From assembly GCA_020860245.1 (NCBI GenBank), contig JAJBUQ010000008.1, positions 335,101 to 359,100 of the forward strand: a stretch of DNA of 24,000 nt, written 5' to 3'. Of this stretch, positions 2,588 to 11,844 are shown piece after piece. The position numbers and the translations under genes were made by a program. Source of the stretch: Rikenellaceae bacterium. Its GTDB lineage: Bacteria > Bacteroidota > Bacteroidia > Bacteroidales > Rikenellaceae. The notes beneath the pieces are model-generated. The model worked only from the letters and a program-made list of their open reading frames with translations. It was not told the origin of the DNA and did not search any database. Each line of letters begins with the position of its first letter. Within the stretch, counting starts at the first letter, position 1.

Positions 2588-3039
2588 CCTGTGTTGCAAA
2601 TAGCGTTTTATACTGTTTCTTCTTTTGGAAATCATGAATGATTATTATTGAGGCGTTTCCGAAAAGGAGTATACGAAAAACGACGGGAATAGTCGGTTTT
2701 ATTCTACAAAAACCAAAAACTATCCCGTGCCCGGGATTTTATTAGCCATAAAAAATCGTTGGTAATCTGTATATATGAGAATCCGGAGGGATTGCCTTAA
2801 ATAGTTAATTTCACAAAGTAATCCGTTTAATTAGGACATGGTTGTTTGACTGGTTGCGGTATCTGATGCTAAACTTGGTTCATCGTAATATTGGTTCCGG
2901 TAAAAGTTGGTATGTATTTTTACCGTTTACGTGCTATGGATTGTATTATAATATGGCTAATTGGAAGACCGGTATATTTAATTTATTGTTTTTACATTTA
3001 TTTTCAATAACTTTATTAAATGAATTTAATACGATTTTC

Positions 3040-9536: not shown

Positions 9537-10184
9537 CTACAAAATAATTTCGTGTTCCCTCTTCTCTGCGAACATTCGGTAAAATGCATCGGAGGTACGT
9601 TCCGGTGTTAAATTCTTACCTTCAGCCACCGGTTCGGTTATGGTAACGGTTCCTATAAATATTCCCGTCCCATGAAATTCATAGGCGAGATTAAGCGCGT
9701 AATTTCGTAGCGCTGCTTTACCCAGCGACATGGAGGCAGACACAGGAGACGGATTTAATGCCACTCCTCCGCCTGTAAATATTACTGCCCCGTATCCCTG
9801 TTTTTTATACATTTTTATTATTCTGTTAAAACAGGATACTCCTCCGCAGACATTAATTCCGAAGTCTGCATATATGTCTTCAACAGTCAACTCCGAAGGA
9901 CTACCTACTCGCCTGGCAACCGCATTGTATATCAAGAGTTCTATAACTTTTCCTCCTCTTTCGAGGCTGTCGAATACCGCGTCCACGGAATGCGGATCGG
10001 ATACGTCAATATGAATATATTCTGCGGTAATTCCTTTAAGAGACAGAGCGTCCGCCTGTTGTCTGAGAGTCTCTGGAGCGCGCCCTGCAAGTATTATATC
10101 GAATCCGTAACGTCCGAATTTTTCAGCTATATGGACACCGAAAGTTTTTCCAGGTCCTATTATGATTATCGAAGGATTTTTCAT
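9537..10184 (-). CDS. short-chain dehydrogenase/reductase-fold protein, atypical
   Basis: I prefer the ATG at 10184 (MKNPSIIIIGPGKTFGVHIAEKF..) over the track's TTG at 10202. It has a Rossmann GxGxxxG-like motif and an NAV motif. By manual alignment the YxxxK active-site region reads MSLGK, so the catalytic Tyr may be absent. Ends with TAG, 26 nt from the convergent antiporter gene. Confidence 0.75.
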   Translation of the reverse strand: MKNPSIIIIGPGKTFGVHIAEKFGRYGFDIILAGRAPETLRQQADALSLKGITAEYIHIDVSDPHSVDAVFDSLERGGKVIELLIYNAVARRVGSPSELTVEDIYADFGINVCGGVSCFNRIIKMYKKQGYGAVIFTGGGVALNPSPVSASMSLGKAALRNYALNLAYEFHGTGIFIGTVTITEPVAEGKNLTPERTSDAFYRMFAEKREHEIIL

Positions 10185-10220
10185 ATATTTAAAATATGGC
10201 AATTATAGTCATAATATTGT

Positions 10221-10252
10221 TAAAGATAAAAGAGGAAGATTAATCCTCCTCT
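10221..10252 (-). terminator. intrinsic terminator/attenuator hairpin in the SDR leader
   Basis: On the minus strand: AGAGGAGGA-UUAA-UCUUCCUCU, 9 bp including one G-U pair. That pair would be an A-C mismatch on the plus strand, which favours the minus orientation. It is followed by UUUAUCUUUA and ends 36 nt upstream of the ATG at 10184. Confidence 0.6.
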
Positions 10253-10286
10253 TTGGAGATTACTCTCCTATAATAGACAATTATAA

Positions 10287-10428
10287 AGGGGCTGTGGCTT
10301 CTTGGAAATACTAATACTAAAAGGCATGTACTCCAATCCGTTCCGAACAGGTTTGCGACGACCTCAAGGTAGACAGACAGAGTCCATGCCTTTTAAAGCA
10401 CAGACCCCTAACCTGACTTCCTACCTTG
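10287..10428 (-). ncRNA. candidate structured cis-regulatory RNA (riboswitch-like leader) or small RNA, family not recognised
   Basis: Nested helices found by eye. Outer helix: 10287-10296 with 10399-10409, 10 bp with one bulge. Inner helix: 10319-10332 with 10381-10394, 13 of 14 bp. An 8-bp pseudoknot-type pairing joins 10365-10372 (inside the inner loop) to 10421-10428. A promoter lies upstream and a terminator downstream on the minus strand. Confidence 0.45.
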
Positions 10429-10496
10429 TTATCCATTGTCGCAATTAATTCGGAAATGTAGGTGTTCCGGGTATCATAATATATTCTATAATGATG

Positions 10497-10529
10497 CAAA
10501 TATAGTCAATAACCGGGAAATTTAACAAA
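10497..10529 (-). promoter_or_regulatory. Bacteroidetes-type promoter (TTTG-N21-TATATTTG) driving the SDR leader
   Basis: Minus strand: TTTG (10529-10526), a 21-nt spacer, then TATATTTG (10504-10497). It sits just downstream of the terminator of the preceding minus-strand gene. Confidence 0.6.
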
Positions 10530-10560
10530 GTATTGTAATTATATTTAAAGGCCTGTGTAT

Positions 10561-10583
10561 AAAAAAAGCGGTCCGGGGACCGC
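10561..10583 (-). terminator. intrinsic terminator of the DUF937-OmpA gene
   Basis: Minus strand: GCGGTC-CCCG-GACCGC followed by TTTTTTT (10567-10561), 24 nt after the TAA stop at 10607-10609. Confidence 0.85.
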
Positions 10584-10606
10584 CTTTATCGATCGGTAAG
10601 ATCTTA

Positions 10607-11844
10607 TTATTTCATAAAACGGAATGCGATATCCCTGTCCTTTGCTCTGTCGTCGTCAGACGCGTTAGCACTGCGTGTGGCTTTCTCTTCGCCGAATCCT
10701 TCGGTAGTGATGCGGTTGGAAGCGACCCCTGCTTTTACAAGAAGAGATTTTATGTAATTAGCGCGTTGTTCCGATAATTCCATATTCGCGTCTTCACTGC
10801 CCACTTTATCTGCATAACCTGCGATCCTTATTTTAGCATTATCATAGCTCTTAAGGATTGCTGCGATATTGTTAATAGCGCGTTGTGATTCATCGTCACG
10901 GAATTCGTTTGCGCTGCCGAATACGAAATTGATATCTTCGAATTCAAACCATCTACTCTTCAGATCGTTATCCGATGCATTCTTGTAATCGTTAGAATTT
11001 AAATACCTTACCATTTTATCTATCTCGCCATTCTTGTAAACGACGATGCGCTGTCCGTCCGATAAAGTAAGGTGAGTCGTATCGCGGTCTCTGTCACCGA
11101 GCCTATCCGCAGCGCGGGAGGTCTCGTTCCTTACAGTATCGACTACCTGAGAAGTACGTGTCTCATATCTGTCCTCAATTACCGGACGCTCGGTCTTACG
11201 GCATGATCTCCACCAGAATATGAGAAGGAGTAAAAGGAGAATTATGATAAGCCACGTGATCCAGCTGTTGTTCTTTTTCTTGTTGTCCGTTGTTTTAACA
11301 TTATCGTACTTCTTATTGTCCGCGATATTATTCAGACCGAAAGAATTTTTAAGCCCTGACGGCATATCGGATAGTATGCTGCTTCTCTCTTTGTTGAGCT
11401 CTCCCATAAGATCCGCCATGCTCCACTTCTCTTTTACGAGCTTATTTCCTAAAAATCCTGCGACAACAGGGCCTAACATAGATACGAGCCTGTTCGTAGC
11501 TACTTTTGAAACTCCTGGATCCGACGATACGGCAGAGGTAAAATCTGCTGCCTTGTTTCCGAGAAGATTCTCAAGGAACTGATCGCCGATGTTCTGCTGT
11601 TCCTTGTGGGGATTATCGCAGAAAATACCGTTCATATTCGAGAGAATGTTCTGATTGCCTGCCTCCTCGAGAATGTTTTTCATCTGCATCGTGTTGCCTT
11701 TTTCATAAAAACACCGAGAAGTCCCGGGATTATGGATTTTACGGCCGATGACACTTTAGATTCGTTTTCGTCTACCAGTGAAGCTGCTTTGGAAACCATT
11801 TCACGGTTTACAGTAGCTTTAAGTGAATCGTAAATTTTCGACAT
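10607..11844 (-). pseudogene. DUF937 / TM / OmpA_C-like domain envelope protein with a frameshift at an A5G run (11699-11703)
   Basis: The ATG at 11844 gives MSKIYDSLKATVNREMVSKAASLVDENESKVSSAVKSIIPGLLGVFMKK, then ATRCR*. This is a DUF937-type N-terminus. The track ORF 10607..11689 continues in the -1 frame. One extra A would give ..GVFMKKGNTMQMKNILEEAGN... The C-terminus has the OmpA-like region ..IAGYADKVGSEDANMELSEQRANYIKSLLVKAGV.. Confidence 0.75.

Follow-up and report, generated by a model that had tools for sequence, protein, structure and literature searches.

To our knowledge the cis-regulatory RNAs and small RNAs (sRNAs) of the Bacteroidales described so far are few, and hardly any come from uncultured families. 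Among the systems closest to the one described here, the trp leader (helices 1:2, 2:3 and 3:4) and the PyrR-controlled pyr leaders (anti-antiterminator, antiterminator and terminator) are chains of alternative helices. Terminator-type riboswitches are ordered as promoter, conserved structured domain, terminator and gene, and exchange a strand between the sensor and the sequence downstream, and 6S RNA is a long, mostly double-stranded rod for which an alternative fold is possible. The Bacteroides sRNAs, such as GibS and the BTnc series, feature a sigma-ABfr promoter and a Rho-independent terminator, and a length range of 30-500 nt has been used for them (PMC7366714). The element analyzed here is an RNA of about 270 nt, encoded on the minus strand of a 24,000-nucleotide stretch of Rikenellaceae DNA (assembly GCA_020860245.1, contig JAJBUQ010000008.1, positions 335,101 to 359,100; the whole stretch is called the window, and positions are those of the window throughout). 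It resides in the gap between a gene encoding a DUF937-OmpA protein and a gene encoding a protein of the short-chain dehydrogenase/reductase (SDR) fold. It is a real, conserved and structured RNA with two competing folds, and it is absent from Rfam.

As in the trp and pyr leaders, an intrinsic terminator closes the promoter-proximal leader shortly before the gene, the strand 10394-10373 can pair with either of two conserved and mutually exclusive partners, purine-rich and pyrimidine-rich segments alternate, and a 3' tail can also pair, weakly, with the 5' strand of the terminator. Unlike those leaders, the RNA of the window has neither a conserved leader peptide nor a known protein-binding motif, the helices to be swapped lie about 60-70 nt from the terminator, to which their coupling is hypothetical, and a hairpin of 41 bp must open. 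The order of the elements and the strand exchange between sensor and downstream sequence recall terminator-type riboswitches, from which the RNA differs in matching no Rfam model, in being conserved in stems and not in loops or junctions, in its rod geometry, and in a gene context pointing to no ligand. With the Bacteroides sRNAs it shares the type of promoter, the type of terminator and the order Bacteroidales, and its length falls inside their range; it differs from them in having no sequence similarity to the catalogued ones and in its long bistable domain. Compared with typical genus-restricted sRNAs, its structure is far more extensive and its conservation at saturating divergence is higher. 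Like 6S RNA it is a long rod with a possible second fold, but its distribution is narrow and its largest internal loop, about 9 by 3 nt, is asymmetric, variable and poorly conserved.

A long hairpin conserved in two lineages

The organism of the window belongs to the Bacteroidales, the closest named homologues of its proteins coming from Rikenellaceae metagenome-assembled genomes (MAGs). One syntenic relative was found, an uncultured Rikenellaceae lineage showing the order carB, DUF937-OmpA gene, 427-nt gap, SDR gene and Na+/H+ exchanger gene. This second lineage is made up by L002-L005, L009 and L016, which derive from a JGI metagenome, Logan runs and the MAG MI.7_1. Protein identity between the two lineages is 92% for carB, 78% for the exchanger and the OmpA protein, and 49% for the SDR protein, the genes of which are 55% identical at the nucleotide level. 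The four-fold degenerate sites of the flanking genes are only 34-37% identical, neutral positions being thus saturated. The intergenic region can be aligned between the two lineages from promoter to terminator.

The minimum free energy (MFE) of 10185-10500 is -93.2 kcal/mol (z = -4.1), a value as good being found in none of 100 shuffles, and the z-score for the RNA of the relative is -3.6. Folding of the minus strand is favoured over that of the plus strand by 11 kcal/mol, and its main hairpin contains eight G-U pairs; both mark it as the strand of the RNA. In both MFE and alignment folds the conserved core forms one long hairpin (H), spanning 10455-10341 on the minus strand and made up by about 41 bp. 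Five stems can be distinguished, P1 (10455-10448 with 10348-10341), P2 (10444-10438 with 10359-10353), P3 (10428-10420 with 10373-10365), P4 (10415-10410 with 10379-10374) and P5 (10407-10397 with 10390-10380), closed by an apical loop at 10396-10391. When the 41 pairs are monitored in the three distinct sequences available, 97.6% of the cells are paired, as compared to 31-45% after a shift of the 3' partners by 1-3 columns. The hairpin shows three compensatory changes and three one-sided ones.

The paired columns of the core are identical between the window and the relative in 70 of 82 cases (85%), and the 3' tail of the hairpin is 80% identical. The unpaired columns inside the hairpin, which comprise internal loops, bulges and the terminal loop, are identical in 18 of 37 cases only (49%), and seven are gapped. 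Strains of the second lineage differ from one another at four intergenic positions, all located in the flanks, none in the hairpin. Stems and tail being conserved though neutral sites are saturated, the alignment provides strong evidence of strong purifying selection on an RNA.

Two mutually exclusive partners for the apical strand

The tail ACGGAUUGGAGUACAUGCCUUUU (10341-10319) starts immediately 3' of P1 and is complementary to the apical loop and to the 3' strand of P5 and P4, that is to the segment AAAAGGCAUGGACUCUGUCUGU (10394-10373). In fold H this segment pairs with the 5' strand of the hairpin and the tail is single-stranded; in the alternative fold, called A, it pairs with the tail. 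The apex-tail helix keeps 16 pairs in all three sequences, with one compensatory change (A-U to G-C) and two one-sided changes. The energies calculated for this duplex are -27.9 kcal/mol (window), -30.1 (L002) and -34.7 (L003), while dinucleotide-shuffled tails give -11 +/- 3 kcal/mol and in neither lineage does any of 2000 reach the observed value. The apex's own pairing, rich in G-U, is weaker than the apex-tail duplex (-22.1 and -15.0 kcal/mol).

Because the tail starts at the base of P1, yet pairs beside the top of P3, full formation of fold A would require the opening of the whole hairpin H, and the two folds are best modelled as mutually exclusive. Upon constrained folding, H and A lie within 1-11 kcal/mol of each other, the window favouring H and L003 favouring A; in the ensemble of L002 the MFE structure is H, the centroid A. 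The constraint of pairing twice results in stems conserved in sequence, and not merely in pairing. In fold A of the window, the displaced 5' strand (10409-10399) can be captured by the window-specific segment CACAGCCCCU (10296-10287), which resides in a poorly conserved spacer (10318-10281) located 3' of the tail. In the predicted fold A of L002 the displaced strand would pair with the 5' leader instead.

A pseudoknot in which the whole tail helix coexists with the intact hairpin was rejected on geometry, by inference; a shorter contact between loop and tail, of about 6 bp, is possible. A role of fold A as an internal terminator is unlikely, since L002 offers only a poor U-tract and another terminator follows downstream.

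These folds replace the multi-helix pseudoknot proposed in an earlier note on this DNA, in which the hairpin at 10455-10341 had been missed. Of the helices then listed, the 8-bp pairing of 10428-10421 with 10372-10365 is a true complementarity, but corresponds to stem P3 and makes no pseudoknot. The pairing of 10332-10319 with 10394-10381 (13 of 14 bp) is likewise complementary and conserved, but belongs to fold A and does not coexist with the main hairpin. While both are maintained in the relative, other helices are lineage-specific. The 10-bp helix joining 10287-10296 to 10399-10409 is supported in the window, where 13 of 1000 shuffles reach its -19.7 kcal/mol, and absent in the relative, where 591 of 1000 reach -9.8 kcal/mol. 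An AT-rich 5' hairpin, which partly precedes the likely transcription start, and a cggaa/ttccg hairpin are both absent in the relative.

Known RNA families and distribution

The Rfam 15 collection used includes 4227 models, among which all the riboswitch classes, 6S, 6S-Flavo, SRP, RNase P, tmRNA, T-box, ribozymes, and the motifs with names in Bacteroid and Bacteroides-. In gathering mode no family was found on the leader RNA when the whole window was scanned. The search proposed in the earlier note was also carried to E<=10 over 10000-10700, the 171-nt core (10300-10470) and positions 2575-3000 of L002, and gave no family match either. The best scores were 12-28 bits, against thresholds of 38-229, and correspond to terminator look-alikes, matches on the wrong strand, or models of microRNA hairpins; no family recurs over the core in both lineages, and the 6S and 6S-Flavo models are not among the matches. 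Judging from these sequence searches, the leader RNA is no recognisable member of any catalogued Rfam family.

No confirmed relative was obtained when the SDR protein was used as query against species-representative genomes. A strict two-block DNA pattern, run on 185,579 species representatives, hit one genome, in a single copy, and this is the Rikenellaceae MAG MI.7_1, a member of the second lineage. A looser three-block pattern retrieved 32 loci from metagenome contigs; the covariance model R1 accepted only L016, again of the second lineage, and the remaining loci are chance matches in coding or unrelated regions. Two matches to a pattern of the switch segments were found on viral contigs, both by chance and inside a phage terminase-like gene, and no match to the leader RNA was found by blastn in phage and plasmid collections. 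The identity of DUF937-OmpA homologues falls from 77% to about 50% at the next tier, and neither synteny nor RNA was found at the two loci of this tier that were checked. The leader RNA is single copy in all the loci searched.

The predicted transcription unit and candidate promoters of the SDR gene

All the elements listed here are on the minus strand, and would make up a transcription unit of their own between the DUF937-OmpA and SDR genes. The former ends at 10607 and is followed by an intrinsic terminator at about 10586-10561 (GGCGGUCC..GGACCGC, then U7), which implies that a separate unit starts after it; an equivalent hairpin with a U-tract is found in L002 3' of the orthologous gene. 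Directly 3' of this terminator lies a Bacteroidetes-type promoter (10529-10497), formed by the -33 element TTTG (10529-10526), a 21-nt spacer and the -7 element TATATTTG (10504-10497). It fits the sigma-ABfr consensus, TTTG at -33 and TAnnTTTG at -7 (PMC7366714), and its counterpart in L002 reads CTTG-N19-TATCTTTG. Transcription is predicted to start near 10491-10488. A conserved 5' block, CCCGGAACACCUACAUU (10472-10456), unpaired in the hairpin fold and identical in 9 of 13 aligned columns, leads to hairpin H.

Beyond tail and spacer, the alignment highlights a second conserved region (10280-10255), consisting of the block UUGUCUAUUAUAGG and of the small hairpin GGAGA-GUAA-UCUCC (10268-10255). 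The stem of the latter is GGAGA/UCUCC in the window, GGAGG/CCUCC in L002 and GGGGG/CCUCC in L003, changes that are compensatory or introduce wobble pairs. The terminator preceding the SDR gene (10254-10221) is formed by AAAGAGGAGGA-UUAA-UCUUCCUCUUU, an 11-bp stem (10254-10229) followed by a U-rich tail. The terminator of L002 occupies the corresponding position and keeps the structure, with a stem of 10 bp and U7, but differs in sequence. The distance from the promoter to the small hairpin and the terminator of the window is about 265 nt. An AT-rich spacer (10220-10185) separates the terminator from the SDR gene (9537-10184, minus strand; ATG at 10184-10182), which encodes a protein of 215 aa matching Pfam adh_short at E = 7e-23. 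The distance from terminator to ATG is 36 nt in the window and 52 nt in L002, where the hairpin ends at 2948 and the SDR gene starts at 3001. Promoter, small hairpin, terminator and ATG had all been placed correctly by the first reading of the sequence.

Logan contigs of the organism from which the window comes show no difference from it. In the Logan assembly of SRR15219669, the contigs L001 (1-20) and L051 (4440-4458) break inside the terminator hairpin (window ~10226-10241), their ends overlapping in AATCTTCCTCTTTTAT; this looks like a break of the assembly graph at an inverted repeat, and not like strain variation.

Upon motif inspection, no canonical -7 box was found between terminator and ATG, either in the window or in L002. 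The only candidate in the spacer is a weak box, TATAATTG (10207-10200), which carries one mismatch, ends 15 nt before the ATG and is not conserved in L002. A promoter at this box would leave a 5' untranslated region (UTR) of about 10 nt or less, and 5' UTRs of that shortness class are found in ~3.7% of B. thetaiotaomicron mRNAs (PMC7366714). Since a canonical box is missing and the weak one would yield such a rare, short leader, the promoter of the RNA is probably the only good promoter for the SDR gene.

The CCUUUY segment of the tail could also bind the terminator's 5' strand, the positions involved being homologous in the two lineages. The energy is -5.9 kcal/mol in the window, reached by 96 of 2000 shuffles, and -12.6 kcal/mol in L002, reached by 3 of 2000, and one position covaries in all three partner strands. 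The pairing may be taken as a weak hint that switch and terminator are coupled. Attenuation via a leader peptide was rejected, as the short open reading frame (ORF) of the window, encoding MIPGTPTFPN, and its start codon are missing in L002. This ORF of 10 codons (10445-10477, minus strand; AUG AUA CCC GGA ACA CCU ACA UUU CCG AAU UAA) runs from a window-specific 5' insertion to inside P1.

A putative attenuator leader or stand-alone RNA

The earlier note had proposed an unclassified leader or attenuator, perhaps a riboswitch, or else an sRNA of about 270 nt. The layout, the absence of Rfam matches and the conservation all hold, but the results lean against a small-molecule riboswitch in particular. 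Tentatively, and short of an even chance, the RNA is regarded here as a cis-acting, two-state attenuator leader of the SDR gene. The layout, the lack of a canonical -7 box before the ATG and the conserved bistable domain speak for this assignment. A sigma-ABfr-type promoter would drive the synthesis of a structured RNA of about 270 nt, ending at the terminator 36 nt before the SDR ATG. Fold H, a rod of 41 bp, would form first during transcription, and fold A once the 3' tail has been made, the tail taking the loop and the 3' strand of the apex. The ratio of H to A would depend on some factor, more probably a protein, an RNA or a physical cue than a small metabolite, and would determine the extent of read-through past the terminator into the SDR gene. 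Transcripts that stop at the terminator would build up as a 5'-UTR-derived RNA of about 270 nt. The pairing of tail and terminator would complete a chain of four alternative helices, as in the trp or pyr leaders. That the RNA is transcribed, that transcripts read through into the SDR gene, that H and A are coupled to termination, and what kind of signal is sensed, we infer from the sequence.

Several results weigh against an attenuator. Conservation far above neutral holds for the one syntenic lineage, but no RNA was found at seven other loci of the SDR family (R1, filters off: best E 0.065, <=13.2 bits). The leader RNA is seen upstream of one pair of SDR orthologues only, and no recurrent association with a pathway emerges. 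The SDR gene evolves much faster than the RNA (49% identity in amino acids, 55% in nucleotides). With two lineages only, covariation statistics are weak, the observed value being reached by 21 of 500 shuffles. Between switch and terminator lies a little-conserved spacer of about 40 nt, and the distance from the tail to the small hairpin is about 60 nt. In the constrained ensembles of the three sequences the terminator 5' strand has the same partners in H and in A, so that a link from switch to terminator is not shown by these ensembles.

Nearly as likely as the attenuator, the two readings being close, is a stand-alone sRNA of about 270 nt, acting in trans by base pairing or protein binding. 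The terminator would then be no more than its 3' end, its adjacency to the SDR gene would be incidental, and the latter would rely on a weak promoter of its own or on low-level read-through. A consensus promoter and a strong terminator of its own are hallmarks of validated intergenic sRNAs of B. thetaiotaomicron (PMC7366714), and an sRNA would account for an RNA much better conserved than the gene next to it, for SDR homologues residing elsewhere without the RNA in unrelated and partly mobile contexts, and for the lack of a fold-dependent anti-terminator. The weak -7-like box at 10207-10200 would be available to the SDR gene, but it is not conserved in L002 and would give a very short leader. 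Moreover, a long and conserved pair of exclusive helices is what cis switches typically have, and a simple base-pairing sRNA could do without it. Neither a target nor a conserved single-stranded seed was identified, a crude duplex scan of the 19 start regions in the window being uninformative. A small-molecule riboswitch, with H, or H plus a loop-tail pseudoknot, as an aptamer and a ligand stabilising one fold to control termination, has the same layout as the attenuator, and would be a new class, as no known one matches. The apical loop can pair with the tail and carries the only compensatory change in their helix, a pattern that could equally be read as a pseudoknot. A riboswitch is nevertheless unlikely: stems conserved at 85%, next to unpaired hairpin columns conserved at 49% and carrying indels, are the reverse of the usual aptamer pattern, the RNA is a rod and not a multi-helix junction, no ligand is suggested by the downstream gene, and two lineages only are known.

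Very improbable is a divergent member of a known family (6S, SRP, ribosomal-protein leader, T-box, ribozyme) missed by the models. The rod superficially resembles 6S or SRP RNA and is as conserved as housekeeping RNAs, but none of the 4227 models matches the RNA strand over the core at E<=10 in either lineage, neither a large central bubble nor a GNRA-capped SRP helix 8 is present, and a widespread housekeeping RNA would be expected in more than the one of 185,579 species representatives that the strict pattern hit. Least credible of all is that the region is no RNA element, but a regulatory region conserved as DNA, a small gene encoding a protein, or a repeat. Each genome does offer ORFs of 48-70 codons across it, but their frames differ between the lineages, which are separated by indels of 1, 1, 2, 1 and 3 nt; protein coding was rejected because ORFs and frames are not common to both. 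In translation, the two lineages have hardly any 5-residue words in common here. Substitutions keep the pairing, G-U pairs occur on one strand only, and the element is neither repeated in the searched loci nor found in phages or plasmids.

The RNA might represent a new class of RNA switch, in which a rod-like sensor hairpin hands its apex strand to a conserved 3' tail and the refolding controls a terminator or the RNA's own activity, upon a trigger that may be a metabolite, a protein, an RNA or temperature. Such a class, found so far in one uncultured Rikenellaceae-like clade, is a somewhat doubtful proposition. A regulated attenuator would add a new sensor architecture in a phylum dominating gut and anaerobic communities, and offer a handle on the function of an SDR subfamily lacking the catalytic Tyr; a trans-acting RNA would be an unusually constrained one. 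The distribution in two lineages limits the present value of the finding.

SDR subfamily, neighbouring genes and further elements

The SDR subfamily was aligned using P0001-P0013, P0035 and the product of 9537-10184 (minus strand). All the members share an invariant TGGG...SMSxxKAxLRN, in which SMSxxK replaces YxxxK and Met the catalytic Tyr; the lack of this residue, suspected from the window protein alone, is thus a feature of the whole family. Pairwise identities among them are 33-51% and form a star-like pattern, and the protein of the window has no close homologue, the best being 49-51% identical. Other SDR loci are found behind a BACON-domain gene, between integrases (L008), in an operon with DUF1706, or behind a canonical promoter of their own.

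The DUF937-OmpA gene of the window is split in two ORFs (11683-11844 and 10607-11689, both on the minus strand) set in different frames, with a shift near GAAAAAGGCAACACGATGCAGATG. The smaller ORF, of 54 aa, matches the N-terminal 51 residues of the orthologue P0121 (411 aa) at 86% identity. The same split is found in the independent Logan contig L051, and could be a frameshift, a pseudogene or a homopolymer error.

A second conserved intergenic element was pulled out by chance with the loose metagenome pattern. It reads UUUCCGAAAAAAAUUUCAGGUUUUUUUUGAC...GGGCAUGGAU...CACGGAACGGAUACA..ACAUGAGGA and was found on five contigs from several metagenomes (L022 826-906; L028 5347-5428; L037 303-385; L041 10273-10354; L045 578-659). 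It has no match in Rfam or to R1, and shares an extra UUUCCGAA block with the RNA of the window. In L022, the only context inspected, it is located between divergent genes. The sole match at gathering threshold to Rfam in the 24-kb window is a tRNA gene at 2470-2543 on the plus strand.

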